Positions 10,712 to 32,906 of a stretch of DNA of 64,000 bases are shown here, one piece after another. This stretch comes from an uncultured Pirellulales bacterium. Its GTDB lineage: Bacteria > Planctomycetota > Phycisphaerae > Sedimentisphaerales > Anaerobacaceae. The notes under the pieces were generated by a model. The model worked only from the letters and a program-made list of their open reading frames with translations. It was not told the DNA's origin and ran no database searches. Each line of letters begins with the position of its first letter. The stretch's first letter is position 1. The DNA is taken from NCBI GenBank assembly GCA_964346195.1, contig CAYFUB010000097.1, forward strand, positions 4,688 through 68,687, written 5' to 3'. Both the position numbers and the translations under genes were made by a program.

Positions 10712-10721
10712 CTTCCTGTCC

Positions 10722-11663: not shown

Positions 11664-11774
11664 ATATCACGAAAGTGCAATAAATTGCGATTTTCATACA
11701 TTTTTCCGGCCCGTATGAGGTATGATAATAGAACATGGATCAGTAGGTGCAATCAAATAATGACGAGGTGACGC

Positions 11775-15707: not shown

Positions 15708-15833
15708 GAATTTGCGACTTGAAACTTGATTCGGGTTGCGCAGAATCTTCGCGGGGCTTGTGTCCGTGCGGCACGGGTCCCGCTGTTGTCTCTGGGAACG
15801 ACGCCAAGTCTTGCCGGCGGCGGGAATTGTCGA

Positions 15834-18800
15834 ATGGATATAAGCGTCAGAATGACAGTCATCCTGCTTTGTTTGCTGCTTCTGCTGTCCTGGGCTGCGG
15901 CTGCCGACGCCGCAGCGGGTGACCCGTCCGTAGTGATCAACGAGTTTGCCGCCTCGAATCGGCGCAGTCTGGACGACGGGGACGGCAATGCCGCTGACTG
16001 GATCGAGCTGTACAACAGCAGCGCCAGACCGATCTCTCTCAGCGGCTGGTACCTGACCGACGAGCAGAGTGATTTGCGGAAATGGCCCTTTCCTCCCGCC
16101 GCCGTAGTGCCTGCCGGCGGATACCTGGTCGTCTTCGCTTCGGGCCAGTCCGTGAGTGACTACGTTGACACGAAGGGGTATCTCCACACCAATTTCGCCC
16201 TTGACAGAGGCGGGGAGTACCTGGCCCTCGTCGATCCCGGCGGCGCCGTCGTGCACGAGTATGCTCCCTCTTTTCCTCCTCAGCAGACAGACGTCTCCTA
16301 CGGCGTGCGGCTTGGCGCGTTTTACTACTTCACGACGCCGACGCCGGGACGGGCCAATGGCCCGGGCGTCCCCGGCCTGGTCGAAAGGACGTACTACAGC
16401 CATGAGCGGGGGTTCTATGACCGCCCGTTCGACCTGCTGATCTTCTGCGACACGCCCGGGGCTGCGATTCGCTACACCCTGGACGGCTCGGAACCCACCG
16501 AACAGCACGGCCTCGTGTATCAGCCCAACACGCCCATTCACATCACGACGACAACCCAGGTGCGATCCTTTGCATTCAAGGCCGGCTGGCAGCCGGCGGA
16601 TGTTGCCACGCACACGTATATCTTCGTTGACCACGTCGCCTATCAGGAGTACCGGCCGACCGGCTGGCCGACCGATTGGGGCTATGATTCGGAGGTCGGC
16701 GGGATCGTTCCGGCCGACTATGAGATGGACCAGCGCGTCGTCAACAATACGCAGCCCGGCTACTCCGTCCGCGAGGCCCTTCTCGACATTCCCACGCTGT
16801 CAATCTCCATGCTCCTGGATGACTTCATCGGCCGAACCGGCGGCATTTACGCCAATCCTCTGAGCCGCTGGGAGCGCAAGTGCTCGATCGAATACATCCT
16901 GCCCGATGCGGCGGAGGGCTTCCAGTGCGATTGCAAGATCGAAATTCACGGCGGTTCCAGCCGTCGGCCCTGGCGAATGCAGAAACACTCCTTTCGCCTG
17001 ACCTTCACGAGCGAGTACGGCCCGGCGAAGCTGGAATACCCGCTCTTTCCCGAATCGGAGGTGGAGAAATTCAACCAGCTTGTCCTCCGCGCCTCCTTCA
17101 CCGATTCCTGGGCCCTCGTTTCCTGGGTCTCGACGCGCTACCGCCCCAACGACTCCCAATACATTCATGATGTCTGGATGAAGGAAAGCCTCGGAGATAT
17201 GGGTCAGCCCTCCAGTCATGGGAACTTTGTGCACCTGTATGTCAATGGCCTGTACTTCGGCCTCTACAACCTGACGGAACGTCTGGCAGACGACTTCTTC
17301 GCCGACCACCTGGGGGGCCAGCCCGAGCATTGGGAGATCAATGAGGATTTCGGCCGTCCCCGCACGCGCTGGCAAGCCATGATGGCCATCGATCCTTCCA
17401 CCGCGGCGGGATACCGGAAGATCCAGGACTATCTCGATGTCGAGGACTTCGCCGACTATATGCTGCTGCATTTCTATGCCGATGCCGAGGACTGGCCCCA
17501 TCACAACGGCCACGCCGCCGCTAATGCCGCGAGTGGTGACGGCAGGTTCCGTTTCTTTGTCTGGGACCAGGAGATTGTGCTCGATTATCACGGTCGCGCT
17601 GCCTCCCGGATCGACAACAACAGCGGGGTCGGCGCCGTCTTCCAGAAGATGCGCATGAATGAAGAGTTTCGCCTGCTCTTTGCGGACCGGGTCTACAAGC
17701 ATTGTTTCAACGGCGGGGCGCTCAGCCTCACCGCTTCTCAGGACCGCTACCGCGCAATCGCGAGCTGGATCGACAAGGCGATCGTTGCCGAGTCGGCGCG
17801 CTGGGGCGACGTCCAGATGAGCACCCCCTACGGCAACCCGATCCAGCAGCCGAGCCCGCTCACCAACATCAACCACAACCTGTATCCCCCCGTCCCCCAC
17901 GGTCCCAACTATTATTTCACCCGAGAGGATTCCTGGGTCGTGGAGCGCGACAATGTCATCAACGATTACATCCCGGCTATTCACGACCCCACCAACTCTT
18001 ACGCTCTCCTCAACGTGCTGCGCGCCGAGAACCTGTATCCCGATGTCGATCCCCCCGTCTTCCACGTCAACGGGACATATCGGCACGGCGGACACGCCGC
18101 CTCGGGCGACAGACTGACCATGACCAACCCAAATGGCACAGGAGCGATCTACTATACGCTGGACGGAACCGATCCGCGCCTCCCCGGCATTGGCTCCGGC
18201 CAAGAGGATATGAATGCCCTCGTCGGCGAGCACGCGGCCAAGCGCGTTCTGGTCCCAACCAGCGATATCGGCCAAAGCTGGAGGGACCTGGGTTACAGCG
18301 ATACGCTCTGGATCAGCGGCACCGGTGGCGTCGGATATGAGAGAAGCTCGGGCTACGAAACGCTCTTCGACATCGATGTCCAGGCCCAAATGTACAACGT
18401 GAACACCAGTTGCTACGTCCGTATTCCATTTAGCCTCACCGCCGACGCTCTGAGCAGTCTCGCCAGTCTCCTTCTGAGGGTGCGATACGACGACGGCTTC
18501 GTCGCTTATATCAACGGGACCGAAGTGGCCCGGGACAGGTGCACCGGAACGCCCCAATGGAATTCCATTGCCAGTGGCAGCCATGCTGACACCGAGGCCA
18601 TGTCCTTTACGGATTTCGACGTGACCGCTCACATCGGCCTGCTCCGACAGGGCAGCAATATCCTGGCCCTCCATGCCCTGAACGCGTCCCCGACGAGTTC
18701 CGATTTCCTTATCTCCGCGGCCCTGGTCAGCGTTCTGGGCGGTCCGCCAAGCGATCCGAGTGTCTCGCCCACGGCCGTTCCCTACACGGGGCCGATTTCC

Positions 18801-19361
18801 CTGGCCGAGAGCACGCACGTCAAGGCGCGCGTGTTGGATAACGGCACCTGGACCGCGCTGAGCGAGGCGATTTACGCGGTCGACCCGGTCGCCGAGAACC
18901 TGCGGATTACCGAGCTGATGTATCATCCAACGGCATCCCAGGCAGAGTTCATCGAGTTGGAGAACATCGGGACCGTGACGATCAACCTGAATGGGGTCCG
19001 GTTCACCCGGGGCGTTGATTTCACGTTTGGGAACGAGAGATTGGCGCCGAATGAGCATATCCTGGTGGTTCAGGATCTGGCGGAGTTTGCGAGCGGATAT
19101 GACGCCTCCGTCGTGAGGATCGCCGGCCGGTATGCCGGCAGACTCGATAATTCCGGGGAGACCATCGAGTTGCAGGACGCGGCTGGCACCATCATTCACC
19201 GGTTCCGCTACAAGGATGACTGGTATGACAGCACCGATGGCCGGGGGCACTCCCTGTCGATCAAGAATCCGACGAATACCGACATGACCCTCTGGGGGCG
19301 CAAGAGCGGCTGGCGGGCCAGCACCGTACGCGGAGGCTCGCCGGGCTACGATGATGAGTGA
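15834..19361 (+). CDS. secreted lamin-tail-domain (LTD) - CotH kinase-like - LTD protein
   Basis: Start trimmed to ATG 15834 (MDISVRMTVILLCLLLLLSWAAAADA). N-terminal LTD: VVINEF...DWIELYN...ISLSGWYLTD...GGYLVVFASG...NFALDRGGEYLAL. Central CotH-like region: KHSFRLTF, HDVWMKE, NLTERL, DWPHHN. C-terminal LTD: LRITELMYHP...EFIELENIG...INLNGVRFTRGVDFTF. Confidence 0.85.
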   Translation: MDISVRMTVILLCLLLLLSWAAAADAAAGDPSVVINEFAASNRRSLDDGDGNAADWIELYNSSARPISLSGWYLTDEQSDLRKWPFPPAAVVPAGGYLVVFASGQSVSDYVDTKGYLHTNFALDRGGEYLALVDPGGAVVHEYAPSFPPQQTDVSYGVRLGAFYYFTTPTPGRANGPGVPGLVERTYYSHERGFYDRPFDLLIFCDTPGAAIRYTLDGSEPTEQHGLVYQPNTPIHITTTTQVRSFAFKAGWQPADVATHTYIFVDHVAYQEYRPTGWPTDWGYDSEVGGIVPADYEMDQRVVNNTQPGYSVREALLDIPTLSISMLLDDFIGRTGGIYANPLSRWERKCSIEYILPDAAEGFQCDCKIEIHGGSSRRPWRMQKHSFRLTFTSEYGPAKLEYPLFPESEVEKFNQLVLRASFTDSWALVSWVSTRYRPNDSQYIHDVWMKESLGDMGQPSSHGNFVHLYVNGLYFGLYNLTERLADDFFADHLGGQPEHWEINEDFGRPRTRWQAMMAIDPSTAAGYRKIQDYLDVEDFADYMLLHFYADAEDWPHHNGHAAANAASGDGRFRFFVWDQEIVLDYHGRAASRIDNNSGVGAVFQKMRMNEEFRLLFADRVYKHCFNGGALSLTASQDRYRAIASWIDKAIVAESARWGDVQMSTPYGNPIQQPSPLTNINHNLYPPVPHGPNYYFTREDSWVVERDNVINDYIPAIHDPTNSYALLNVLRAENLYPDVDPPVFHVNGTYRHGGHAASGDRLTMTNPNGTGAIYYTLDGTDPRLPGIGSGQEDMNALVGEHAAKRVLVPTSDIGQSWRDLGYSDTLWISGTGGVGYERSSGYETLFDIDVQAQMYNVNTSCYVRIPFSLTADALSSLASLLLRVRYDDGFVAYINGTEVARDRCTGTPQWNSIASGSHADTEAMSFTDFDVTAHIGLLRQGSNILALHALNASPTSSDFLISAALVSVLGGPPSDPSVSPTAVPYTGPISLAESTHVKARVLDNGTWTALSEAIYAVDPVAENLRITELMYHPTASQAEFIELENIGTVTINLNGVRFTRGVDFTFGNERLAPNEHILVVQDLAEFASGYDASVVRIAGRYAGRLDNSGETIELQDAAGTIIHRFRYKDDWYDSTDGRGHSLSIKNPTNTDMTLWGRKSGWRASTVRGGSPGYDDE

Positions 19362-19683: not shown

Positions 19684-22600
19684 CTAATCTCCGTACCCTG
19701 GAGAGCCACCGACATGAGTACTGGGACGCCAGACACTCTTCTGGTCGAGAGTGCCGGGATCGGTTATGGGGGGGTCCGCAACGGTGAGCGAGAAACCCGA
19801 GCCGTCAGTAACTCTGTACCAGTCGTCCTCAAACCGAAAGTTGTGGATGACCTGTCCGGCGGCGTCCTGCAGCTCAACGCGCTCGCCGCCATTGTCAAGA
19901 CTCCCGGCGTACGCACCGACAATGGGCAAGCCCGGCCCGTACACGGCTTCAAAGGCGGCGATGTCCCTGACGACGAGCACGTACCCGCCTGGCGCCAACT
20001 CGAAGCCTGGGAAGGTGAAGTCGACGCCATCCGTGAACTTGACGAGATTGAGATTGATGGTCCCGGCGCCGACGTTGGTCAACTCGATGAATTCGGCGTT
20101 CGGGTCGGGCGGGTGGTACATGATCTCACTGATGCGCAGGCTCTCCGCCACCGGCCCGACCGCAAAGACCGCTTCGGTCAGCCCGCTCCACGGGCTATAG
20201 GGATTACCGGTTACCAGCACGCGCGCCTTGATTTGGGTGCTTTTGTTGAGAGTGATGGGCCCGGCGTACTCGCGAACGGCCCCGGGCAGGCCATCATCGA
20301 CCGGAGAGCTGCGCCGGCCGGCGATCAACTCGATGGAAAAGAGGAGGTCCGAGCTCGTACGCGATGAATTCAGGCCCTGAATGGCAAGCAGGTTCGGCCC
20401 CTGCTTCAGCAGGCCCGCCCCGGCGGAAACGTCGAATTCCTCGAAGGCCATCGCCGCCGAATCGTCATGATTGCCGTCGGCGGTGGAATTCCACGTCGGC
20501 GTGCCGGTGAACAGCGCTCGCTGGATCTCGACGCCGTTGAGCCAGGCGATGAAGCCGTCGTCATAGCGCATGTTCAAAACCATGAAATTGAACGTGCCCG
20601 GGTCCCCCGAGACAATGAACGGTATGCGGATATAGCAGCTTGTGCGGCTTCCGTACATCTGGTCGCCGAGGTCGATGCCCAGGAGGTTCTGGTAACCGCT
20701 GCCCCGTTCGTAGCCGACGCCGCCGGCGCCGCTGAGCCAGCTCGAGTCGTCGAAGTTGCCACCGCCGCGCCAGGCCTCATCGACCGGCCCCGCAGGCACG
20801 AGCGCTCGTTTGGGCGCATTCTCGGGCACCAGGGTGGACGACTCCAGGATGGTCGAGGTTACGCCGGGAGGACGCGGGTCCGAGCCGTCGAGTGTGTAGT
20901 ACAGCAGGCCGTTGGCGTGAGGATTTGTCAGGCTCACCACGCTGCCGGCCGCGAGATGGCCCCCGTCGGGGAGAATTCCCGGTGGGGCGACGAATTGACC
21001 ATCGACCCACGTGCATCGCGTCTGGAGCCACTGTTTGAGGTGGTCGATCTCGCCCTGGAAGCCGCCGAAGCGCGGGCCCTGCCCGCTCCATCTCTGGAAG
21101 TTGCGGGCCTGAGCCTCCCGAATCTCGTCGGCCATCGCGTCAATCGTGGCATTGAGACTCGCCGTGCTGAATGGGCCCTGGCGCAGCACATACCATCGAT
21201 CGATGTACCTCTGCCAGAATTCGGCGTCCTCGAACAGCCGGTCCCACCAGACAAACCTGTGATAGTCGGTTGCGTCTCCCGTTCCATGCCAGGTCCGGGC
21301 GTTGTCGTCGCGGCCGTCCGTGGAATCCAGCGCCCGGTCGAAATCCCAGAGCGGGCCCATTTCGAGTCGGCCGTTACGGGCCTTGTACAGGAAGGTGCTC
21401 AGGCGCAGGGCGTCCACATTCATCGCCAGCATGTTGAGCAGGTTGTGGTCGATGAAGGAATCCGCATCGATGTACCGTGCATAGCCGGTCCGGGGATTCG
21501 CAAAGTCCGGTCCGTAGAGCGCGTCTTCAAAAGCATCGAGATGGCCTCTGATCCACGCGGACTGTGCCGCTGTGATTTCCACTTCCTTCGGGTCAACATA
21601 GCAGAACGTCCCGCCGCCGAAGGTCGGGTTCCCCCGGGCCGTGCGAAAACCGGTGTCGCCCGGATCGCGCCGGTCGATCTTCAGCATGTACCCGCCGGCA
21701 ATCCTGGGCTCGGTGCTGTCCCAGGGCTCCAGCTTCTCGATATTGACACGTTCCGCGCCGCGTTTGATCTTCTCCATGAGAATGTACAGCCCAACGTAGT
21801 CGCTCGCCGATACCGTGTCATCGTTGGTGTTGAGATACATCTCGACGAATCGGGTGCGAACCGCGTACCGGCCGACCTGATTGCTTAAATCGAACACGAA
21901 CGCGTTGTTGATCAGCGCGCGGTCGTAATTGTACGGGCTGTACAGGATCCAGTCGGAATCGGCGGGCAGGCCCAGGATGGAAACATCGCGGTCCTGGTCG
22001 TTCTCGTCTCGCACTTCGAGTGCGTACGAGGGTTTGGCGGTCCCCTGCGTACTGGAGCCGCGTCTCTTGATCGCGGCCCGACCGTGGAAATCCGGCGGGT
22101 CCGTGATCCTCGCGCGCCCCTGAGCCCCTGTGTCTATGACAACGGCAGAGACCTTGACAAAATTGCCGCCGATGCTTCGGCGGCCCGTGTCGACGAGCAC
22201 AACCGGCAGGTTGGAGCTGAAGCCCAGAACCTCGTAGGAAAGGGCGATATACGTTTGGCTCACCACCGTGCTCGGGGCTTTGCCCGGCTCATAGGCGCGG
22301 GCGACGATTTCCTTCGTCCCGACGATTGGGATAGGGGCCTGGTACCTTGGGGAGCCAAGGGTGGGGACCTGGCCGTCCAGGGTGAACCGGATCTCGGCCG
22401 CCGGGCCGGGCGAGCTCAGCTCCAGAAGGAAGTAATCGACAAACGTGCCGGGCGGGCGTGAAAAGACGGGCTCCGCCGATATCTCAACGTACCCCGGACT
22501 GTTGGCCCGGCCCGGCGACGGCGTGCCGAAGTACTGCTCTTGATTGCCATAGAGACCATACGAGAGATCGGCACGCTGGGGAGGAAAACCTCTGTCGGCC

Positions 22601-23148
22601 CCGCCGCCCGTGCGTGAGCCGTATTCGTGGGCCACTTGCCCGTCCGGCCCGACCAGGGCCAGGTACTCGCCCGCGCCGTCCAGGGAGAAGTTCGCGTGGT
22701 ACTACCCTGCCTGGTCCCGATAGGGCCAATTCTCCGGATGGTCCTGTTCCTGAATCCCGGAAGCGAAAAACACCAGGAATCCGCCCGCCACGACAGGAAC
22801 GGCGGGCAGTGCCCATTTCGTCAGGTCATCCGGATCGTCCGTCAGATACCATCCACCAAGGGTGACCGGCTCGGTCCCGCGATTGTGGATTTCGATCCAA
22901 TCGGGAGGGGACACCGTCTTGCCTGCGACGATGGTCGAGATCCCTGTCTCATTGATAGCCTGGAACTCGCTGATAACCACCGGTGAGTCCGGAGGATGGG
23001 CGTAATCTCCCGGGGAGGCGAGGCCCGTCCGCGTCGCTATTTGCCCTGTCAACAGAACCGCTATCAACAGGAACAAGCTTTTTTCATTCGCTGGTCGCGG
23101 CCAACGCCAAAATCGCAGGGAAACCGACAATCGTGCAAGTCCGAACAT
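19684..23148 (-). pseudogene. second LTD - CotH - LTD paralogue, reading frame interrupted by a single in-frame TAG (22702-22704)
   Basis: Track ORFs 22702-23148 and 19684-22635 are in the same frame. Translating through gives ...ENWPYRDQAG*YHANFSLDGAGEYLALVGPDGQVAHEYG..., colinear with ...YVDTKGYLHTNFALDRGGEYLALVDPGGAVVHEYAP... of the intact paralogue. There are no other disruptions across about 1150 codons. Confidence 0.6.
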
Positions 23149-23378: not shown

Positions 23379-23411
23379 TTGACCAAACGGTCAGAAATGA
23401 CTATATAGTCA
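23379..23411 (+). promoter_or_regulatory. promoter with two palindromic operator-like sites upstream of tetR-kamA operon
   Basis: TTGACC (23379-23384), 17-nt spacer, TATATA (23402-23407). Palindromes TGACCaaacGGTCA (23380-23393) and the perfect TGACTATATAGTCA (23398-23411) overlap the -35 and -10. A T-rich tract lies at 23353-23367. Confidence 0.5.
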
Positions 23412-23414
23412 CGT

Positions 23415-24053
23415 GTGGACGATATGGTCACACAACCTGATATACCGAATCGCACGCAGCGGCGGGTGTCCAAGACGCGAAACCGCCTGCTTAAAGCGGC
23501 ATTGGCGGTCTTTGCCGAGGTGGGGACCGATGCGGCTACGATCGAGATGATTACGCAACGGGCGGACCTGGGCAAGGGAACGTTCTACCGGCATTTTGCC
23601 GATAAGGGCGAAATCATCGGGATGCTCATCGAGCAGTGTGTCGACGAACTGGTGGAAGCCATATCCCAAGCCGCGGGCCAGCCGCACTCGCTGCAAGAGG
23701 CGCTCGACGCATTGGTCAATGGTCACGTGGAGTTCTTTCTGAGTCATCAGGATGAATATATTCTGTTGTTCCAGGGGCGCATGCTGTTGAAGTTGGACCG
23801 CGGATTGGCGTGTGATATCGAGCGGCCGTACGAAAGTTACCTGCACCGTGTCGAAGAACTGGTCGGGCCCTTCCTGCCCCAACCCGTGGACGCCGTGAAA
23901 ATCAGGCGTCTGGCGTGCGCCATCGCGGGTCTCGTGTCGGGATTCTTGTCCTTTGCCATGATTACCATGGAGCCCCAGGCCGTCAGAGAAAGCATCGAGC
24001 CGATGCGCGGCGCTTTTCTCGGCGCCGTGGTCGGCTTCATGGAGCGGCGTTAG
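23415..24053 (+). CDS. TetR/AcrR-family transcriptional regulator
   Basis: N-terminal HTH: RTQRRVSKTRNRLLKAALAVFAEVGTDAATIEMITQRADLGKGTFYRHFADKGEII. The start is GTG 23415 or ATG 23424. Confidence 0.9.
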   Translation: MDDMVTQPDIPNRTQRRVSKTRNRLLKAALAVFAEVGTDAATIEMITQRADLGKGTFYRHFADKGEIIGMLIEQCVDELVEAISQAAGQPHSLQEALDALVNGHVEFFLSHQDEYILLFQGRMLLKLDRGLACDIERPYESYLHRVEELVGPFLPQPVDAVKIRRLACAIAGLVSGFLSFAMITMEPQAVRESIEPMRGAFLGAVVGFMERR

Positions 24054-24095
24054 TTACGGATCTTTTTATGGCCACTGAAGCAAACGAGAAAGGAA

Positions 24096-25457
24096 ATGAG
24101 AATCATGTCTATGTGCTCTGCAAACGGAGGCGATGATTCCTGTCATGGAGATACCTCCCTGTGTGCGGTCGAGGAAGAGCCTCCGTCGATAACGGCGGCA
24201 CGCACAGATACCGAGGCCGCCATTTGCCGGTCGAAAGGCTGGAGCGACTGGCGCTGGCAAATGGCCAATCGAATCAGGACGCCTCAACAATTATCGTCAG
24301 CCTTCCCGCGCCTGGTCAGAAGTCCCGACTTGACTTCTGTGGTGGCCAAATATCCCATGGCGATTACGCCGTACTATGCGTCGCTGATTCGTCGTGCGGA
24401 CAGCTCCGACCCCATCTTTCGGATGTGCGTGCCTCAGGTCCAGGAACTGAGCGATCCGCCGTTCCTGACGCTCGACCCTCTGGAGGAATGCAGAGACATG
24501 CCGGTCCCCGGGATGATTCACCGCTACCCGGACCGCGCGCTGGTCATCGCCACCACCATGTGTTCGACCTACTGTCGGCATTGCACGCGCAAGCGGATCG
24601 CCGGAACGCGCGAGACCAGCATCACGAGGCGGCGTCTCGAACAGATCGCCGCCTATCTCACGGAGCACCCGCAGATCAGCGATGTGATTGTTTCGGGTGG
24701 GGACCCGCTGACCATGAGCACTGAACAGCTCGAGACGGTGTTGTCGCGATTACGCCAGGTGCCCTCCGTACAGATCATCCGCATCGGTACGCGCGTGCCG
24801 GTGGTGCTACCCCAGCGTGTCACCGATGAGTTGTGTCAGATGCTGCGCACGTATCACCCGGTGTGGATCAACACCCATTTCAATCATCCGCAGGAGTTGA
24901 CCGGGGAGTCGGTACAGGCCTGCAATCGCCTCGCCGACGCCGGTATCCCGCTGGGCAATCAGTCGGTCCTGCTGCGCGGGGTCAACGATTGTCCTCAGAT
25001 CATCGAGCGGCTCTGCCGCAGTCTGGTGCGCATGCGGGTCAGGCCGTACTACCTGTACCAGTGCGACCTCGTACGCGGAGTGGAGCATTTCCGCACGCCG
25101 TTGTCGCGCGGCATCGAGATCATGGAGTACTTGCGCGGCCGACTCAGCGGTCTGGCGATCCCCACCTTTGTCGTGGATGCCCCGCACGGCGGCGGCAAGA
25201 TCCCGGTCCTGCCGACCTATGTGGTCACCCAAAGTCCGACCCACACGGTGCTGAGAAACTGCGAGGGCATGCTGATTGCTTATCCCGAGCCGCGCCCGGA
25301 GTTCGGAGATCAGTGTCCAGCCCCACAGGAGGCCTCTGCGCCCGGGGTGTGGGAATTGACGGCGGGATATTACACTCGCATTCAGCCGAAGGAGACTTTG
25401 CGTCTCGCACGACGCCAACCGCACTGTGCGTCAGACGAATCGGTCGGAGATTTTTGA
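24096..25457 (+). CDS. kamA: KamA-family radical SAM aminomutase (lysine 2,3-aminomutase-like)
   Basis: CSTYCRHC (CxxxCxxC, 24561-24584). WRWQMANRI opening. SGGDPL. PYYLYQCDLVRGVEHFRTP. PLP-lysine context PTFVVDAPHGGGKIPV. Confidence 0.85.
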   Translation: MRIMSMCSANGGDDSCHGDTSLCAVEEEPPSITAARTDTEAAICRSKGWSDWRWQMANRIRTPQQLSSAFPRLVRSPDLTSVVAKYPMAITPYYASLIRRADSSDPIFRMCVPQVQELSDPPFLTLDPLEECRDMPVPGMIHRYPDRALVIATTMCSTYCRHCTRKRIAGTRETSITRRRLEQIAAYLTEHPQISDVIVSGGDPLTMSTEQLETVLSRLRQVPSVQIIRIGTRVPVVLPQRVTDELCQMLRTYHPVWINTHFNHPQELTGESVQACNRLADAGIPLGNQSVLLRGVNDCPQIIERLCRSLVRMRVRPYYLYQCDLVRGVEHFRTPLSRGIEIMEYLRGRLSGLAIPTFVVDAPHGGGKIPVLPTYVVTQSPTHTVLRNCEGMLIAYPEPRPEFGDQCPAPQEASAPGVWELTAGYYTRIQPKETLRLARRQPHCASDESVGDF

Positions 25458-25461
25458 GGAA

Positions 25462-26526
25462 ATGAGCAAGACATTGCGGACGGCTACGTCCGAATCAGGC
25501 AGGCGGAGTGACCCGTTGACGATCGGACTGGTCTACGATCTTAGAGACGACTACCTGGCGGAGGGCTTCACCGAGGAACAAGTGGCGGAGTTCGACTCGG
25601 CGGGAACCATAGCCGCCCTGGAAGGGGCCCTGCGGCTCCTCGGCTACTCGGTCGAGCGCATCGGCAACGGTCTGAATCTTGCCAGGCAGCTCGCTTGCGG
25701 CAGGCGGTGGGACCTCGTCTTCAACATTGCTGAGGGTTTGCACGGACGCAACCGCGAGGCCCAGGTGCCGGCCCTGTTGGAGATGTATGGGGTTGCCTAT
25801 ACTTTCTCCGACCCGCTGGTTTGCGCTTTGACTCTGGACAAAGCCATGACCAAGCGGGTGGTCCAGTCAGCGGGCCTGTATACGCCTCGTTTTGGCGTGG
25901 TGACGTCGGTTGACGACGTGAAACGCCTGGAGCTTGAGTTCCCGCTCTTCGCCAAACCCCTGGCCGAAGGTACGGGCAAGGGGGTTGACGAGCATTCCCG
26001 CGTCGGGTCGGCGCAGGCCCTCAAAAGGGTCTGCACCCGCTTGTTGGGGCGGTTTGGCCAGCCGGTCCTCGTGGAAGAGTATCTGCCCGGGCGCGAATTC
26101 ACGGCAGCCGTCCTGGGGACGGGACGGAACGCTGCTGTGCTGGGAACCATGGAAGTGGCCATTCGCAGCGATGCCCCGGCCCAGGATTACTCCTATGAAG
26201 TCAAAGAGCTGTGCGAGCGATACGTGGACTACTTCCCGATGCCGCGCGGGGCCCTGCGGGACCAGGTCGAGAACCTGGCCTTGCGGGCCTACCAGGTGCT
26301 CGAATGTCGTGATACCGGACGCATAGACATCCGTCTGGACGCTCGGGGCCGTCCGGCGTTCATGGAGATCAATCCTTTACCGGGGCTGCACCCGACGCAC
26401 TCAGATCTTCCGATGATCGCCACCCAGGAAGGCATGGCTTACGAAGAACTTGTCAGTCGCATCGTTGCCAGTGCTCTTACCCGTCAGGAGTCAATGCCGT
26501 GCCACGTCGAAAAATCAGCGTCCTGA
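25462..26526 (+). CDS. ATP-grasp ligase, D-alanine--D-alanine ligase-like family
   Basis: ATG lies 4 nt after the kamA stop. Ddl-like pattern: IGLVYDLRDDY...FNIAEGLHGRNREAQVPALLEMYGVAYTFSDPL...DKAMTKRV...FPLFAKPLAEGTGKGV...VLVEEYLPGREF...GRIDIRLD...FMEINPLPGL. Confidence 0.8.
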   Translation: MSKTLRTATSESGRRSDPLTIGLVYDLRDDYLAEGFTEEQVAEFDSAGTIAALEGALRLLGYSVERIGNGLNLARQLACGRRWDLVFNIAEGLHGRNREAQVPALLEMYGVAYTFSDPLVCALTLDKAMTKRVVQSAGLYTPRFGVVTSVDDVKRLELEFPLFAKPLAEGTGKGVDEHSRVGSAQALKRVCTRLLGRFGQPVLVEEYLPGREFTAAVLGTGRNAAVLGTMEVAIRSDAPAQDYSYEVKELCERYVDYFPMPRGALRDQVENLALRAYQVLECRDTGRIDIRLDARGRPAFMEINPLPGLHPTHSDLPMIATQEGMAYEELVSRIVASALTRQESMPCHVEKSAS

Positions 26527-28097
26527 TCCTGTACAACAGTCCACGGTCCTCCGGTCATGGCCATGCCTTCGCTGAAAGCGAGGCTGGCGTCCTGGGCGAG
26601 GTCCGGGCCGTTGGGCAGGCTCTGAACAAGCTGCGCATACCGCACCGGGCGGTCGGTGTGCGCTGGTTTCAGGAACTGCCCGTGATCCTCGCCGCGGCGG
26701 ACGAGCCGGTGGTGTTCAACCTGGTTGAGAGTTTCTGGGCGGACGCGGGAGAGGCCAACCTGGTTCCCACCGTCATACGGAGTTCCGGCAAGGCCTGCAC
26801 GGGTAACAACGCGCACGGTCTGCTGCTGTCTCTGGACAAATGGCAGAGCAAGGTCCTGCTCCAGGCCGCGGGACTCCCCACGCCCCAGGGCCTGATCATC
26901 CGTCCAGGGCGGCGCATCCGTGCGCGGGACCTGTTCGACGGACCCTACATCGTCAAACCGGTGCAGGCCGACGGCAGTGAAGGGATTGACAACACCAATA
27001 TCGTCCGCGGGCGCGGCAGGGCCCTTCGTGAGGTTGTCCGGCACATCCACGATCGACAGGGCCAACCGGCATTGATTGAGCAGTATATCGACGGACGCGA
27101 GTTGAACATCTCCGTGTTTTGTCGTGACGGTACACTGGAGGTGCTGCCTCTTGGCGAAATCGACTTCAGCGCCTTCGAGACAGGACGCCCCCGCATCGTA
27201 GGGTATGAAGCTAAATGGCTCATGGACAGCTTCGAGTACCGTCACACCCCCCATATCGTCCCGGCGCCGCTGCCGAAACGGCTGGCGCAGCGTATCCGCA
27301 AGCTGGCGATAGCCGCCTGCCACGCGCTCGCATGTTTCGAGTACTCCCGCGTGGACTTTCGTTTGGACAAGACCAACCGCCCCTATGTCCTGGAGGTCAA
27401 CGCCAACCCGGACATTTCGCCGGAGGCCGGGTTTGCGGCGGCCCTGCGGGCCGCCGCGATCCCGTACGAGGCCTTTGTGAAGCAGGCTGTCGACAATGCC
27501 TTGGCGCGACTCCGGGATAGTCTCAAGTCGCGAGTCTCAAATCTGAAGTCCTCGCGCTCTATCCATCGCACGTCCGACACTCACCTGCCCATCGAGATCC
27601 GCCGGTGCCGAGCTGAGGACCGGCAGACGGTGCTCTCGTTTCTGGCCGCGACCGGTTTCTTTCGGCCCGACGAGATCGACGTTGCCCGCGAGGTTCTCGA
27701 TGCAGCGCTCGCCGACGGCCCCGAAGGGGATTACCAATCCTTTGTCGCCCGGGTGAAACAGGAAACGACCGGCTGGGTCTGTTTCGGCCCGACGCCCTGT
27801 ACGCTCGGGACTTATGATATCTACTGGATCGGCGTAGCCCCGGCCTGGCAGGGGCGGGGTATCGGCCGGGCACTGACGGCCTTCGCTGAACAGGCGATCT
27901 CCGACCGGGGCGGCCGGCTGTTGGTCGTCGAGACCTCGAGCCGGGAAACGTACCGCCCGACGCGGCAGTTCTACGAGGGCCTGGGCTATCGCGAGGCGGG
28001 GCGAATCACCGAATTCTATGGGCCGGGCGACCACAGGGTCATTCTCGTCAAAGCCGCCAACGGTCAGAGCGATTCGGCCGATGAGAAGCCCCGGTGA
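26499..28097 (+). CDS. bifunctional ATP-grasp ligase (Ddl-like) fused to C-terminal GNAT N-acetyltransferase
   Basis: GTG start overlaps the preceding gene by 28 nt. ATP-grasp part: VFNLVESFWADAGEANLVPTVIRSSGKACTGNN...DKWQSKVLL...YIVKPVQADGSEGI...ALIEQYIDGRELNISV...SRVDFRLD...VLEVNANPD. GNAT part from about 27585: YWIGVAPAWQGRGIGRALTAFAEQ...ETYRPTRQFYEGLGY. Confidence 0.8.
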   Translation: MPRRKISVLILYNSPRSSGHGHAFAESEAGVLGEVRAVGQALNKLRIPHRAVGVRWFQELPVILAAADEPVVFNLVESFWADAGEANLVPTVIRSSGKACTGNNAHGLLLSLDKWQSKVLLQAAGLPTPQGLIIRPGRRIRARDLFDGPYIVKPVQADGSEGIDNTNIVRGRGRALREVVRHIHDRQGQPALIEQYIDGRELNISVFCRDGTLEVLPLGEIDFSAFETGRPRIVGYEAKWLMDSFEYRHTPHIVPAPLPKRLAQRIRKLAIAACHALACFEYSRVDFRLDKTNRPYVLEVNANPDISPEAGFAAALRAAAIPYEAFVKQAVDNALARLRDSLKSRVSNLKSSRSIHRTSDTHLPIEIRRCRAEDRQTVLSFLAATGFFRPDEIDVAREVLDAALADGPEGDYQSFVARVKQETTGWVCFGPTPCTLGTYDIYWIGVAPAWQGRGIGRALTAFAEQAISDRGGRLLVVETSSRETYRPTRQFYEGLGYREAGRITEFYGPGDHRVILVKAANGQSDSADEKPR

Positions 28098-28230: not shown

Positions 28231-28258
28231 TTGAAAGACCGGAAAAGCGTCTTATAAT
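28231..28258 (+). promoter_or_regulatory. candidate sigma70-type promoter for the DUF1549/1553 operon
   Basis: TTGAAA (28231-28236), 16-nt spacer, TATAAT (28253-28258), about 40 nt upstream of ATG 28297. Confidence 0.35.
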
Positions 28259-28296: not shown

Positions 28297-29886
28297 GTGA
28301 AAAGGGAAAACATGATGAGGAGTGTGCCTGTTCTTGTTCTCCTGACGGTCCTGGTCGCAACCGCGGGGACAGACGCGGGGCACAGCCCATTTGAAGGGGC
28401 GGCTGTTACGGCGCCCCAGGGCAAAATCGACGAGCTGGTCTTCGCCAGGTTGGCGCAACTGGGGATTGAGCCTGCCAATCTCTGCTCGGACGCCGTGTTT
28501 GTGCGGCGGGCCTATCTGGACGTGATTGGCACCCTGCCCACCGCCCAGGAGGCCAGAGCATTCCTCTCGGACCGCGACCCGAACAAACGCGGTGCCCTGA
28601 TCGAGCGCCTGCTGGAACGTGAGGAATTCGCGGATTACTGGGCGATGAAATGGAGCGACCTGCTGCGGGTCAAGGCGGAGTTTCCCATCAATCTGTGGCC
28701 CAACGCGGCCCAGGCGTATCACCGCTGGATTCGGACGTCGATTCGGGAGAACAAGCCGTACGACCAGTATGTCCGCGAGATGCTCACGGCCAGCGGCAGC
28801 AATTTCCGTGTGCCCCCGGTCAACTTCTACCGCGCCATGCAGAACAGAGAGCCGCCCGGCATCGCGCAGACTGTGGCCCTGACGTTCATGGGCGTGCGCG
28901 CGGAGAACTGGCCCAAAGACCGGCTGGCCGGCATGGCGGTCTTCTTCTCGCAGATCGGTTATAAGCCCACAGGAGAGTGGAAAGAGGAGATCGTCTGTTT
29001 CGATCCCAACCACGCGGCCGAGCCGGGTGGCGTGGCGCAAGCCGCGGTCTTTCCGGATGGGACCCAGGTTCGACTGGCACCGGACCGGGACCCGCGGGAG
29101 GTCTTTGCCGATTGGCTCATTGATGTGGAAAACCCGTGGTTCGCTCGCAACATCGTCAACCGCATCTGGTCCTGGCTGCTGGGGCGTGGCATCATCCACG
29201 AGCCGGACGATATCCGGCCGGACAATCCGCCGAGCAATCCGGAGTTGCTGGCCTGGCTGGAGAAGGAGTTGGTCGCGTCGCACCACGACCTCAAACATAT
29301 CTACCGGCTGATTCTGAACTCGCAAACGTACCAGCTTTCCTCCATTGCCCGTGACGACGATCCCAGGGGCGCGGCCAATTTCGCCTGTTATCCCCTGCGG
29401 CGGCTGGAAGCAGAAGTACTGATTGACGCCCTGTGCCAGATCACTGGTACGACGGAGGAGTATTCCAGCGCCATTCCGGAACCGTTCACCTTCATCCCGG
29501 AGGACCTGCGCTCGATTGCGCTGCCGGACGGCAGCATTACCAGTTCCTTCCTTGAAATGTTCGGGCGCCCGCCGCGCGATACCGGCCTGGAATCGGAACG
29601 CAACAATCGTCCCACGGCCGCCCAACGGCTGCATCTGCTGAATTCAAGCCACATCCAGCGCAAGATCGAACAGAGCCCAAAGCTCGGGCTGCAAATGCGA
29701 GCCAAGGCAAATCCGCGGCAAGTTGTCACCGGACTTTACCTGACGATTCTCTCGCGTTTCCCGACGGACGAAGAGTTGAAGATTGTGGCCACATATGCTC
29801 AGCCCGGCGGGGCCAAAGGCCGCGAGGCCGCCGTGGACCTCGCCTGGGCGCTGATCAATAGTGCCGAGTTCCTCTACCGGCATTGA
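28297..29886 (+). CDS. DUF1549/DUF1553 domain protein (PSD1-type, planctomycete-expanded family)
   Basis: Signal peptide MMRSVPVLVLLTVLVATAG. DUF1549-like: FVRRAYLDVIGTLPTAQEARAFL...EEFADYWAMKWSDLLRV. DUF1553-like: NPWFARNIVNRIWSWLLGRGIIHEPDD...LILNSQTYQLSS. The start could be 28312. Confidence 0.85.
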   Translation: MKRENMMRSVPVLVLLTVLVATAGTDAGHSPFEGAAVTAPQGKIDELVFARLAQLGIEPANLCSDAVFVRRAYLDVIGTLPTAQEARAFLSDRDPNKRGALIERLLEREEFADYWAMKWSDLLRVKAEFPINLWPNAAQAYHRWIRTSIRENKPYDQYVREMLTASGSNFRVPPVNFYRAMQNREPPGIAQTVALTFMGVRAENWPKDRLAGMAVFFSQIGYKPTGEWKEEIVCFDPNHAAEPGGVAQAAVFPDGTQVRLAPDRDPREVFADWLIDVENPWFARNIVNRIWSWLLGRGIIHEPDDIRPDNPPSNPELLAWLEKELVASHHDLKHIYRLILNSQTYQLSSIARDDDPRGAANFACYPLRRLEAEVLIDALCQITGTTEEYSSAIPEPFTFIPEDLRSIALPDGSITSSFLEMFGRPPRDTGLESERNNRPTAAQRLHLLNSSHIQRKIEQSPKLGLQMRAKANPRQVVTGLYLTILSRFPTDEELKIVATYAQPGGAKGREAAVDLAWALINSAEFLYRH

Positions 29887-29918
29887 CCGGAAAGAAAACG
29901 AAAGGCAGGCGGCATGAC

Positions 29919-31427
29919 ATGAGCAAGACAATTTCCAGACGTGAGATGCTACGCCATAGTCTCCTGGGTACTGCCGGTCTGCTCCTGGGCAGAGGTTTGG
30001 CCGGGGGCGCTTCGGGGACGTCGCCATCGCCCACTGACCAGGGTAAGTCCGTTTCGGTTAGACCCAACATAGTCATTATTCTGGCCGACGATCTCGGGTG
30101 GGGCAGTGTCGGATGCTATGGGGCCGACCCGAAGCTCGTGCGCACGCCGAACCTTGATCGACTGGCAAACGAAGGCCGCCGCTTCACCGATGCGAATACG
30201 GCGTCCTCCGTCTGTTCACCCACGCGCTATGCGCTGTTGACGGGCCGCTACTGCTGGCGCACGTCGCTGCAATACGAAGTGCTGAACGTCCGCGCCCCGC
30301 TGCACATCGAGCCGACACGGGCCACCCTCGCGTCCATGCTCAAATCACTGGGCTACCGTACGGCGGTCCTCGGCAAGTGGCATCTCGGCTATCAGTCGCA
30401 GAAGACGGACTACACCAGGCCGTTGCGTCCCGGCCCGCAGGACGTCGGCTTCGATTACCAGTTCGCCGTCCCGTCCAATCATGGCGACGCCACGGGCGTT
30501 TACGTCGAGGGCGACCGGGTGGCGGGACTGCGTTCCGCGACACTGAGCCCGGACAAGTACAAGAATTGGAGAGGCACTCGACAGCTCGGCCTGGACGCCC
30601 CGCAGCGGGTGGACGAGGACGTGATGCCTACGCTGACGGAAAAGGCCGTGGCGTGGCTTAAGCAACAGGAGCAGGGTCAGCCGTTCTTCCTCTACTACGC
30701 GCCGGTCGCCGTGCACAATCCGGTCACGCCATCGAACCAGACGAAGGACACGAGCCGCGCGGGTCCATATGGCGACTGGATTCACGAGCTGGACCGTTCC
30801 GTCGGCGCCGTGCTGGCGGTGCTGGACGAGAAGGGCCTGACAAATGACACGCTCGTGCTGTTCACGTCCGACAACGGGGGCGAATTCTTCGGTGAAAAGC
30901 AGGCCGCCGCACGGGCCGCAGGGCTCAAGTCGATGGGGCCGTTCAAAGGCGACAAGCACACCATCTGGGAAGGCGGCTTCCGCGTCCCGTACATCGTGCG
31001 TTGGCCCGGCCGGGTGGCGGCAGGTACGGCTTGTGACGAGATGGTCAGCCTGACAGATACGTTCGCGACCCTTGCCGCGCTGGTGGGCGTGCCGATGCCG
31101 GTCGCAAGCCAGGCCGCCGAAGACAGCTTCAACATCCTGCCCGCGTGGCTGGACGAGAGGCATGATGCGCCATTGCGTCCTCATATGATCGTCCACAGCG
31201 CCGATGGCGTTTTCGCCATCCGCCAGGGGCCTTGGAAATGGATCGAGGGTAAACCCGCCAAGCCCAAGCCGCCGCAAGCCCGCCGCGACGAATTCCATCC
31301 GCAGCTTTACAATCTGGCGAATGACATCGGCGAGACTACGGACGTGCAGGACTCGAACCCGGCTGTGGTCGCAGAATTCAAGGCACTCCTGAGTCGTTGC
31401 CGGGAACAGGGCCGGAGCCGCGGATGA
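29919..31427 (+). CDS. arylsulfatase (formylglycine-dependent sulfatase family), Tat-type signal
   Basis: Start trimmed to ATG 29919. Signal: ISRREMLRHSLLGTAGLLLG. IVIILADDLGWGSVGCYG. C-x-P-x-R motif in SSVCSPTRYALLTGRY. TSDNGG. Confidence 0.9.
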   Translation: MSKTISRREMLRHSLLGTAGLLLGRGLAGGASGTSPSPTDQGKSVSVRPNIVIILADDLGWGSVGCYGADPKLVRTPNLDRLANEGRRFTDANTASSVCSPTRYALLTGRYCWRTSLQYEVLNVRAPLHIEPTRATLASMLKSLGYRTAVLGKWHLGYQSQKTDYTRPLRPGPQDVGFDYQFAVPSNHGDATGVYVEGDRVAGLRSATLSPDKYKNWRGTRQLGLDAPQRVDEDVMPTLTEKAVAWLKQQEQGQPFFLYYAPVAVHNPVTPSNQTKDTSRAGPYGDWIHELDRSVGAVLAVLDEKGLTNDTLVLFTSDNGGEFFGEKQAAARAAGLKSMGPFKGDKHTIWEGGFRVPYIVRWPGRVAAGTACDEMVSLTDTFATLAALVGVPMPVASQAAEDSFNILPAWLDERHDAPLRPHMIVHSADGVFAIRQGPWKWIEGKPAKPKPPQARRDEFHPQLYNLANDIGETTDVQDSNPAVVAEFKALLSRCREQGRSRG

Positions 31428-31460
31428 GCGTGCCCTTATTTTGCATGGGACACGAAGATT

Positions 31461-32906
31461 ATGGAGACAGCCATGAGCATCCAACATGACTCAGCGGGCC
31501 TGATCTCAGGCAGGAACGGCACGCCGATCTCCAGGCGTGAGGCAATGCGGCGCGGCCTAACCGGTGCGGCCGGATTGCTGCTGGCCAACCGCACGGGGCT
31601 TGCTCCGGGTGGCAGCGTCAAGGCCGAAGGCCTTGGCGATGGTTCCGCCGCATCCGCACAGAGCCATCGCCAAGCTGCGCTTGACGCTGCCACCCGGGCT
31701 CGGGCCAAGGCGGTGATCCAGATTTGGATGTGGGGCGGGCCGTCACACCTGGACACGTTCGATCCGAAGCCGGAGGCGGGCAATGACTACTGCGGGCAGC
31801 TGAGCAATCCGATCCCCACCAACGTGGACGGCATCATCATCGGCGAATTGCTTCCCCTGCTGGCGAAACAGGCCGACAAGTACTCCATCATCCGCAGCAT
31901 GACCCACGGCGTGAACGCCCATGAGACCGCCTCCTATATGGTCCAGACCGGGCGGGCCTCCGGCGGGCGCGACGTATTTCCGTGCGTCGGGGCCGTCGTC
32001 TCGCTGTTCAAGGGCTATGAGGCGGGTTACAAGGGATTGATTCCGCCGTACATCGTGCTGACCGAGCCGCAGGGGCGGTTCTCCGAGGCGGGATTCATGG
32101 GCTCGCGCTACAAGCCTTTTGCCACGGGCGGCGACCCGGCCCGGACCCCGTTCGTCGTGGAAGGTGTTGTGGCCCAGGGCATTTCCGAGCAGCGGCAGAG
32201 GAATCGCCGCGAATTGCTGCAGGAACTGAACACGCTGGGACGTGTCATGGAAGGCGACGCCCAACTGGCGGCTTCGGAGCAGGCCGAGCGACAGGCGTAT
32301 GACCTGATTCTGGGCGACGCGGGCAAGGTGTTCGATCTCTCACAGGAGACGGTCGAGCTGCGGGACGGCTACGGCCGCAACACCTTTGGCCAATCGTGCC
32401 TGATCGCCCGGCGCCTGGTCGAGCGCGGCGTCACTTACGTCACCATCAACTACAAAGGCTGGGATACGCACAAGCAGCATTTCCAGATCATGCGCCGGAA
32501 ACTGCCGGAGATGGACAGGGGCATGGCGACCCTGCTGCAGGACCTGTCGGATCGCGGCCTGCTGGACAGCACGATCATCTGGTGGAGCGGTGAGTTCGGC
32601 CGAACGCCCAAGGTCCAGTGGGAACCGCCCTGGAACGGCGGCCGCGGCCACTACGGCAAGGTCTTTTCCGCCGTGGTCGCCGGCGGCGGATTCAAGGGCG
32701 GCCGCGTGGTCGGTGCCTCCGATGCAAAAGGCGAGGAAGTGAAAGAGCGGCCCGTGTATCCCTGTGACCTCATCGCCAGTATGTACGAGTTGCTCGGCAT
32801 CGATGCCAGCGCCAAACTGCCGCACCCCCAAGGCCTGGACGTCCGCGTGACGCCGACCATCGCCGACGGCGTGGCCATGGGCGGCCGCTTGAAAGAAATC
32901 ATGTAA
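31461..32906 (+). CDS. DUF1501 domain protein (sulfatase/phosphatase-like fold), Tat-type signal
   Basis: SRREAMRRGLTGAAGLLLA. IQIWMWGGPSHLDTFDPKPEAG. WSGEFGRTPKV. Confidence 0.9.
   Translation: METAMSIQHDSAGLISGRNGTPISRREAMRRGLTGAAGLLLANRTGLAPGGSVKAEGLGDGSAASAQSHRQAALDAATRARAKAVIQIWMWGGPSHLDTFDPKPEAGNDYCGQLSNPIPTNVDGIIIGELLPLLAKQADKYSIIRSMTHGVNAHETASYMVQTGRASGGRDVFPCVGAVVSLFKGYEAGYKGLIPPYIVLTEPQGRFSEAGFMGSRYKPFATGGDPARTPFVVEGVVAQGISEQRQRNRRELLQELNTLGRVMEGDAQLAASEQAERQAYDLILGDAGKVFDLSQETVELRDGYGRNTFGQSCLIARRLVERGVTYVTINYKGWDTHKQHFQIMRRKLPEMDRGMATLLQDLSDRGLLDSTIIWWSGEFGRTPKVQWEPPWNGGRGHYGKVFSAVVAGGGFKGGRVVGASDAKGEEVKERPVYPCDLIASMYELLGIDASAKLPHPQGLDVRVTPTIADGVAMGGRLKEIM

Follow-up and report, generated by a model that had tools for sequence, protein, structure and literature searches.

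What is made by an operon in which a lysine 2,3-aminomutase is joined to two ligases that resemble Ddl, the D-alanine-D-alanine ligase, and to an acetyltransferase? The question is raised by positions 23415 to 28097 of a 64,000-nucleotide stretch of DNA from an uncultured Pirellulales bacterium (contig CAYFUB010000097.1), which is called the window below. Four genes follow each other there on the forward strand: the first gap measures 42 nt and the second 4 nt, and the last two genes overlap by 28 nt; a preliminary description of the locus had given the same coordinates and spacing, and they are exactly confirmed. Domain calls with Pfam and NCBIfam models (SAM, S-adenosylmethionine; PLP, pyridoxal 5'-phosphate) yield the following features:

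23415-24053, + strand: TetR-family regulator, 212 aa (TetR_N, E 5e-13, 49 bits)
24096-25457, + strand: radical-SAM/PLP lysine 2,3-aminomutase, 453 aa (Radical_SAM and LAM_C)
25462-26526, + strand: ATP-grasp ligase 1, 354 aa, with a Ddl-like fold (Dala_Dala_lig_C, 2e-28)
26499-28097, + strand: fusion gene of ATP-grasp ligase 2 and GNAT (Dala_Dala_lig_C and Acetyltransf_1/7/10)
26499-27533, + strand: ATP-grasp ligase 2 domain of the fusion, about residues 1-345 (Dala_Dala_lig_C, 6e-21)
27576-28097, + strand: GNAT domain of the fusion, about residues 360-532 (Acetyltransf_7/1/10, motif QGRGIGRA)

The answer that we favour, and hold to be reasonably probable, is that this operon carries out a self-contained biosynthesis of a cytoplasmic N-acetylated small peptide (a di- or tripeptide) built around beta-lysine.

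The order aminomutase, ligase 1, ligase 2, GNAT (hereafter the cassette) is found in 14 of the 15 loci whose flanks were long enough to inspect, and is thus conserved over the Planctomycetes-Verrucomicrobia-Chlamydiae phyla and Desulfovibrionaceae, a possibility that the preliminary description had raised. The neighbourhoods were obtained from a scan of a genome collection with a single protein query, which gave four full-length relatives, and for the majority from exact-protein look-ups. At least four phyla are represented: Planctomycetota, Lentisphaerota, Bacteroidota, and that of the Desulfovibrionaceae. The loci come from Pirellulales (L001), Lentisphaerae (L003), Bacteroidota (L004), Phycisphaerae-like contigs (L020, L021, L025 and L027), Desulfovibrio mangrovi (L028), an Oleidesulfovibrio alaskensis-like contig (L029) and further metagenomic contigs (L030-L033, n=4); Phycisphaerae/Sedimentisphaerales are included among the lineages carrying the cassette. 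Since loci retrieved independently from four phyla share this order (14 of 15), the core is more than a chance association.

The 28-nt overlap between ligases 1 and 2 is also present in L020 and L021. Ligase 2 and the GNAT are fused in planctomycetes and are separate genes in Bacteroidota and Desulfovibrio, so that the fusion is lineage-specific. Across loci, ligase 1 orthologues are 47-82% identical and ligase 2 orthologues 32-71%, whereas ligase 1 and ligase 2 share only 23-32% identity with each other; the two evidently form distinct orthologous groups. An all-versus-all BLAST of the flanks of ten loci found nothing beyond the core that was universally conserved, and no transporter, carrier protein, precursor peptide, exporter, resistance gene or peptidase conserved beside the cassette. 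In databases, the fusion protein has more than 1,500 matches at E <= 0.001. The best 120 are 55-100% identical over full or partial length, come mostly from metagenome-assembled genomes (MAGs) of Phycisphaerae, Sedimentisphaerales and other Planctomycetota, and bear only the names 'D-alanine-D-alanine ligase' or 'GNAT family'. Identity is higher for ligase 1, at 69-98% among 120 listed matches. In one lineage only, a small CxxCxxCC (YkgJ-type) metal-binding protein is encoded between the aminomutase and ligase 1 (L031 3671-4195).

The aminomutase matches the lysine 2,3-aminomutase of Clostridium subterminale (PDB 2A5H) with 458 bits. Its motifs CSTYCRHC (residues 156-163), YQCD (321-324) and VVDAPHGGGK (359-368) align to Cys125/129/132, Asp293, Asp330 and Lys337 of 2A5H; the radical-SAM CxxxCxxC and the PLP-binding lysine (GGGK, Lys337) are both present, as is Arg134. 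The motifs noted earlier, and the Asp293/Asp330 numbering then given, prove correct in this alignment. In lysine 2,3-aminomutase, Asp293 and Asp330 bind the epsilon-ammonium of lysine, and Arg134 binds its carboxylate. Asp293, Asp330, Lys337 and Arg134 are kept in all ten cassette aminomutases compared (that of the window and nine others). The best NCBIfam model for the window enzyme is AblA, at 497.9 bits just under the cutoff of 525.4. The KamA subfamily model TIGR00238 is passed (311.8 vs 199.2), and scores are far under the other equivalog cutoffs, namely glutamate (420 vs 650) and arginine (362 vs 600) aminomutases and EpmB (252 vs 369). The pattern is the same in all ten cassette enzymes: AblA is best at 447-519 bits, generic KamA is passed, and the glutamate, arginine and EpmB cutoffs are missed by far. 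Because AblA is the best model and the four residues are kept throughout, the enzyme would be lysine-type, with beta-lysine, predicted to be (3S), as the likely product; the earlier assignment stands.

Outside the core aligned to 2A5H lies an N-terminal extension (residues 1-46, window 24096-24240) with the sequence EEEPPS in the window; a [DE][DE]EPP[SP] motif is common to the aminomutases of L001, L003, L004, L020, L021, L025, L028 and L029. This acidic-proline extension could be a docking element for the ligases. The C-terminal tails of the cassette aminomutases diverge from 2A5H past residue 370. In L030 (4339-5656) the aminomutase is broken into two open reading frames (ORFs) of 334 and 102 aa, which is either a frameshift or pseudogene or an assembly error. 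Two other roles were considered for the enzyme and rejected: beta-lysylation of elongation factor P, for which the EpmB score is too low, and lysine fermentation, for which no kamDE, kdd, kce or kal genes are found nearby.

The question then arises as to what the two ligases would join to beta-lysine. Both were aligned across the ten loci to Escherichia coli DdlB, whose sequence was checked as identical to PDB 2DLN. Residues K97, K144, E180, E187, K215, R255, D257, E270 and N272 of DdlB are all kept in both ligases, and because this is the full ATP-grasp catalytic set, both should be active, catalytically competent enzymes. Neither, however, appears to be a true Ddl: both are under every Ddl/Van cutoff, the best model being PRK01372 (169.8 for ligase 1 and 112 for ligase 2, cutoff 243). 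With the catalytic residues kept and the two orthologous groups separate, the two distinct Ddl-like ligases of the preliminary description hold up. At the DdlB positions that contact the substrates, they compare as follows:

Glu15: kept in ligase 1; lost in ligase 2
Ser19: kept in ligase 1; lost in ligase 2 (Val/Thr)
Ser150: Thr in ligase 1; Ala in ligase 2 (Gly in the window)
Tyr216: Glu in ligase 1 (Ala in Desulfovibrio); Trp in ligase 2
Gly276: kept in ligase 1; Asp in ligase 2 (Cys in some)
Ser281: kept in ligase 1; Ala in ligase 2 (Ser in L004)
Leu282: Asp, invariant, in ligase 1; Gly in ligase 2

In Ddl structures, Glu15 binds the acyl donor's ammonium; the acceptor is held at its carboxylate by Ser281 and Leu282, and its side-chain pocket is lined by Tyr216 and Leu282. 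The acceptor pocket of ligase 1 has thus gained two acidic residues, from Tyr216 to Glu and from Leu282 to Asp. Because these were gained while Glu15 and Ser281 were kept, we infer that the donor of ligase 1 would have a free amine, and that its amino-acid acceptor would be one whose side chain is cationic, namely beta-lysine. The substitutions in ligase 2 suggest a donor in which the neighbouring nitrogen already carries an acyl group, and an acceptor different from that of ligase 1. The AlphaFold (AF2) models have a pLDDT (predicted local distance difference test) of 74.6 for ligase 1 and 82 for ligase 2; the top Foldseek matches of the ligase 2 model in the PDB are all Ddl, with a target-normalised TM-score of about 0.8. 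For both ligases, structure search and sequence profiles returned Ddl enzymes only and suggested no alternative function. Peptidoglycan Ddl paralogues were rejected as the identity of the ligases, as the Ddl cutoffs were failed, the D-Ala-binding residues were changed and no mur genes were found near the cassette. A protein related to ligases 1 and 2 is encoded in a Thermodesulfobacteriota MAG (L014 6469-8385), where a Ddl-like ATP-grasp domain and a class-I SAM methyltransferase form one fusion of 638 aa, with no aminomutase nearby; ligases of this type are apparently put to another, uncharacterised use there.

The GNAT domain scores above the cutoffs of Acetyltransf_1/7/10, and its acetyl-CoA motif QGRGIGRA (Q/R-x-x-G-x-G/A) is intact. 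The AblB model gave no match at E <= 1 to either the window GNAT or the stand-alone GNAT of D. mangrovi, and Ngg-type models gave no match to the GNAT domain at E <= 1. The best named model for both GNATs is rimI, at 36-42 bits (cutoff 86). In the PDB, the best match is 2R7H (E 8e-33), deposited by structural genomics as a 'putative D-alanine N-acetyltransferase of GNAT family'. Protein P0121, from the L029 cassette, is 99% identical to 2R7H, and its 90%-identity cluster includes ABB39838.1/WP_011368809.1 of O. alaskensis G20. By these matches, 2R7H is the GNAT, a stand-alone protein, that this cultured, genetically tractable sulfate reducer has in its copy of the cassette, and its deposited name is a guess from the adjoining Ddl-like genes. 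The literature searched reports no function for 2R7H; the single paper citing the entry is said to concern tRNA acetylation by a Salmonella toxin.

A library search with the GNAT domain gave 145 clusters (50% identity level) at E <= 1e-30. About 40% of the 150 GNAT matches listed are fused to an ATP-grasp domain, and family members of odd length are mostly fragments of the fusion. In one 490-aa protein (P0486), a GNAT of the cassette family (E ~1e-31) is fused to a MazG nucleotide pyrophosphohydrolase domain. Lone GNATs 29-40% identical to that of the window, or 51% for the short fragment L019, occur in Actinomycetota (L005-L019; Acidimicrobiales, Nocardioides, Solirubrobacterales), and the match extends over the N-terminal helical extension. 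These actinobacterial genes have no aminomutase or Ddl-like neighbours and no common gene context.

A further protein, absent from the window and missed by the preliminary description, recurs in the cassettes of three lineages. It has 582-597 aa and consists of an N-terminal GNAT-like domain and a histone-deacetylase-family domain:

L021 7219-8967: accessory GNAT/deacetylase, after the aminomutase
L028 (D. mangrovi) 10629-12386: accessory GNAT/deacetylase, after the GNAT
L031 6211-8004: accessory GNAT/deacetylase, between ligase 2 and the GNAT

Its nearest solved relatives are acetylpolyamine amidohydrolases (E 1e-64 to 1e-66). This points to a putative small-molecule product with an acetylated terminal alkyl-amine, consistent with an N-epsilon-acetyl beta-lysine moiety.

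Taken in the order in which they seem to act, the enzymes suggest the following pathway. The aminomutase would convert L-lysine into beta-lysine, a step strongly supported by homology. Ligase 1, to judge from its active-site residues, would couple an amino acid X with a free amine onto beta-lysine. Ligase 2 would activate the carboxylate of the N-acylated intermediate and add a further amine or amino acid Y, because Glu15 and the residues for the acceptor carboxylate are lost. The GNAT would then use acetyl-CoA to acetylate a free amine that is left, most likely the terminal epsilon-amine, because three lineages add a deacetylase of acetylpolyamine-amidohydrolase type able to reverse such a modification. 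Overall, lysine would give beta-lysine, X-beta-lysine, X-beta-lysine-Y and the N-acetylated product, with optional deacetylation, in what is presumably this order of steps. RhiM and RhiC provide a precedent: these two ATP-grasp ligases act in sequence and extend a non-proteinogenic amino acid to a tripeptide (PMC13579937).

The product is probably intracellular, because no exporter is conserved, and might act inside the cell as, for example, a compatible solute or a protective or nitrogen-rich metabolite. A more specific version, to which we give somewhat less than even credence, is a beta-lysine-centred tripeptide whose epsilon-amine is reversibly acetylated and deacetylated, forming a new class of compatible solute, or of polyamine-like protectant with switchable charge, that anaerobic Planctomycetota, Lentisphaerota, Bacteroidota and also marine Desulfovibrionaceae would have in common. 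Among cultured hosts, O. alaskensis, D. mangrovi, D. psychrotolerans and Oceanidesulfovibrio indonesiensis are named. All of them are, we assume, of marine or saline origin, which would be compatible with a role as osmolyte.

Several observations weigh against these proposals. One locus of the 15 is an exception: in L034 (8001-8537) a lone GNAT, 54% identical to 2R7H, is found next to pheS, and neither an aminomutase nor a ligase occurs within 8 kb of it. The substrate assignments of the ligases are predictions from a handful of substitutions read against Ddl. Acetylation and an in-cluster deacetylase could also be a protecting-group strategy, in which case the final product would not be acetylated. 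As to a compatible solute in particular, the Lentisphaerae MAG of L003 carries a sample label that we take to mean the freshwater Lake Tanganyika, and control by TetR and sigma-54 is atypical for osmolyte genes.

Four other explanations are considered. Beta-lysine may be the only building block: the ligase or ligases would join its carboxyl to the epsilon-amine, as in the streptothricin side chain, and the GNAT would cap or neutralise the resulting short polycation or nitrogen store. The kept Glu15 and acidic acceptor pocket of ligase 1 would let beta-lysine fill both sites, an accessory enzyme of acetylpolyamine-amidohydrolase type fits a polyamine-like product, and the GNAT has weak, non-significant matches to streptothricin acetyltransferase models (E 0.006-0.06). 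These matches are far under the cutoffs, however, and the presence in every locus of two clearly different ligases (23-32% identical, with differing substrate residues) argues for two reactions rather than one iterative reaction, so that we regard a homo-oligomer as unlikely. An exported antibiotic or signal peptide containing beta-lysine, with acetylation as self-protection or as a pro-drug step and deacetylation on maturation, seems to us slightly less probable still. Small TetR-controlled clusters with paired ATP-grasp L-amino-acid ligases are typical of di- and tripeptide antibiotics such as rhizocticin, and an acetyltransferase together with a deacetylase fits a protecting-group logic. 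The cassette nevertheless consists of single-copy orthologues 44-85% identical over four phyla amid unrelated flanks, unlike patchy secondary-metabolite clusters, and no exporter, resistance gene or peptidase is conserved with it in the ten loci compared.

The ligases could also act like RimK, TTL or LysX and attach beta-lysine or other residues to a protein or ribosomal peptide, which the GNAT would then acetylate. The preliminary description had kept a RimK-like protein modification as an alternative, and it finds no support here. What speaks for it are weak, partial matches of the ligases to the Pfam families TTL (25 bits) and RimK (18 vs 21 bits), and RimI as the best named GNAT model (36 bits). 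The former cover a generic 40-residue part of the shared C-terminal ATP-grasp motif, and the full-family models are missed by a wide interval (rimK_fam 35.4 vs a cutoff of 143.4; rimI 36 vs 86). The nearest relatives of the ligases by sequence and structure are small-molecule Ddl enzymes, the accessory deacetylase is nearest to small-molecule acetylpolyamine amidohydrolases, and in the ten loci compared no gene for a carrier, a precursor or any other small protein is conserved beside the cassette; we consider this explanation improbable. In the last scenario, the locus would encode the known osmolyte pathway that leads to N-epsilon-acetyl-beta-lysine, with unrelated cell-wall paralogues of Ddl lying in between. 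The aminomutase is just under the AblA cutoff and a GNAT is present, as this would predict. The synteny and the failed AblB test largely refute it, and we give it hardly any credence: the AblB model does not match the GNAT even at E <= 1, both ligases stand between aminomutase and GNAT in 14 loci of four phyla, with reading frames that often overlap and one ligase fused to the GNAT, and these ligases, with their altered D-Ala-binding residues and no mur genes nearby, fail all Ddl cutoffs. An intracellular small molecule is favoured as the putative product over an exported antibiotic or a protein modification, because nothing conserved beside the cassette encodes a transporter, a resistance function, a carrier protein or a precursor peptide.

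Regulation of the cassette differs between lineages. In the window, two operator-like palindromes of the form TGACY-N4-RGTCA lie upstream of the TetR start:

23380-23393, + strand: operator-like palindrome 1, TGACCAAACGGTCA, upstream of the TetR start
23398-23411, + strand: operator-like palindrome 2, TGACTATATAGTCA, ending 3 nt before the TetR start codon

They are the only two matches to this pattern in the whole 64-kb window, where 0.11 are expected. The pattern was derived from the repeat in L021, since a generic inverted-repeat finder missed the short arms. The palindrome is likewise present upstream of the orthologous TetR genes of L021 (5172-5185) and L027 (6504-6517), which lie directly upstream of the cassette and whose products are 57% and 82% identical, respectively, to that of the window. 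TetR is probably an autoregulated repressor, which would repress its own operon via the two operators. The preliminary description had counted this regulator as part of the gene set; it is not core, since 3 of the 14 cassette loci have it and 11 lack it. Both Desulfovibrio loci (L028 and L029) have instead a dedicated gene for a sigma-54 enhancer-binding protein upstream of the cassette, presumably an activator, and the best sigma-54-type -24/-12 element, TGGCAT-N5-TTGCT, in the intergenic stretch between that gene and the aminomutase (L028 6457-6472; L029 6488-6503). In L029 this element falls within the called aminomutase ORF, so the start was probably called too far upstream. Because TetR operators are found in three loci and a sigma-54 element with an enhancer-binding protein in two, the cassette appears to be a discrete regulated unit whose regulators are lineage-specific. 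An Rfam scan of the window and seven loci found no riboswitches.

As to the limits of the operon and of its genes, the ATG of ligase 1 at 25462 agrees with the 354-aa form of many homologues, and a GTG upstream at 25426 is likewise open; the start of the fusion gene, MPRRKISVLILYN, is kept among homologues. The flanks consist of unrelated planctomycete-type genes, with CotH/lamin-tail proteins upstream and DUF1549/DUF1553, sulfatase and DUF1501 genes downstream. Directly upstream are two paralogous giants with CotH-kinase, lamin-tail and chitobiase-C domains (15726-19361, + strand, 1211 aa; 19684-22635, - strand, 983 aa). A 148-aa lamin-tail fragment (22702-23148, - strand) adjoins the latter and may be its detached N-terminus. 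On the other side, a near-consensus promoter-like site at 28231-28258 (TTGAAA-16-TATAAT, 11/12 matches) precedes the DUF1549/DUF1553 - sulfatase - DUF1501 run (28297-32906) and would mark where the operon ends downstream.

The four enzyme families are all known already, as is the chemistry of each step; the literature searched describes neither their combination nor its wide conservation nor the putative product. The preliminary description knew of no characterised pathway with this gene set, and none is described in the full-text literature searched, in which one aminomutase phrase probably could not match the spelling with a comma. The cassette genes are also unmentioned in a paper on the sigma-54 regulome of D. 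vulgaris and in that on the G20 transposon library (PMC4045070). If the proposed pathway is correct, it would add a new beta-lysine-derived metabolite, and the route to it, in sulfate reducers that have been cultured and in many anaerobic planctomycetes that have not. It would give a function to about 145 GNAT clusters (50% identity) now named 'RimI-like' or 'D-alanine-D-alanine ligase', to the orphan structure 2R7H and to two mis-annotated 'Ddl' families, and would provide two new ATP-grasp specificities for beta-amino-acid peptide synthesis, of interest for biocatalysis. The question can be tested directly, since transposon mutants of O. alaskensis G20, which has the cassette, are archived as a library (PMC4045070).

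How does the cassette compare with known systems? The AblA/AblB pathway for N-epsilon-acetyl-beta-lysine is found in methanogens and is also annotated in Pelobacter (PMC3543383). The cassette shares with it a lysine 2,3-aminomutase of the same subfamily, an acetyl-CoA-dependent GNAT acting after it and a product that is probably intracellular. Unlike in that pathway, the GNAT is not an AblB homologue, two conserved ATP-grasp ligases intervene, and the aminomutases reach 447-519 bits against a cutoff of 525 and carry the N-terminal extension with the EPP motif. Ngg, which serves in N-acetylglutaminylglutamine amide synthesis, resembles the window fusion in that a single polypeptide combines N-acetylation with ATP-grasp peptide ligation and yields a small cytoplasmic N-acetyl peptide. 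Its domain order is opposite to that of the window fusion, and its ATP-grasp domain is of RimK type. The cassette ligase, in contrast, is Ddl-type with no RimK match (35 vs 143 bits), there is no AsnO-like amidotransferase, and the predicted substrate is beta-lysine, not glutamine. The preliminary description had seen in the operon a merger of AblAB and Ngg; the general logic holds, but as an analogy and not as homology, the GNAT having no AblB or Ngg-type match. With Ddl, the ligases share the fold (target-normalised TM-score ~0.8), the residues that bind ATP, Mg and phosphate, and presumably a mechanism by way of an acyl-phosphate. They differ in that Ser150, Tyr216 and Leu282 are replaced in both, and Glu15, Gly276 and Ser281 also in ligase 2, in scoring below all Ddl/Van cutoffs, and in a context of aminomutase and GNAT rather than of mur/fts genes. 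RhiM and RhiC of rhizocticin biosynthesis likewise act as two sequential ATP-grasp ligases that make a tripeptide around a non-proteinogenic amino acid supplied by their own cluster, but they belong to another ATP-grasp subfamily, and there the amino acid is a phosphonate, the product is an exported antifungal, and neither a GNAT nor a radical-SAM enzyme takes part (PMC13579937). Closest in the PDB to the GNAT domain of the window is 2R7H, apparently its orthologue and drawn from an aminomutase-ligase-ligase-GNAT cassette, in which, unlike in the window, the GNAT stands alone and is not fused.

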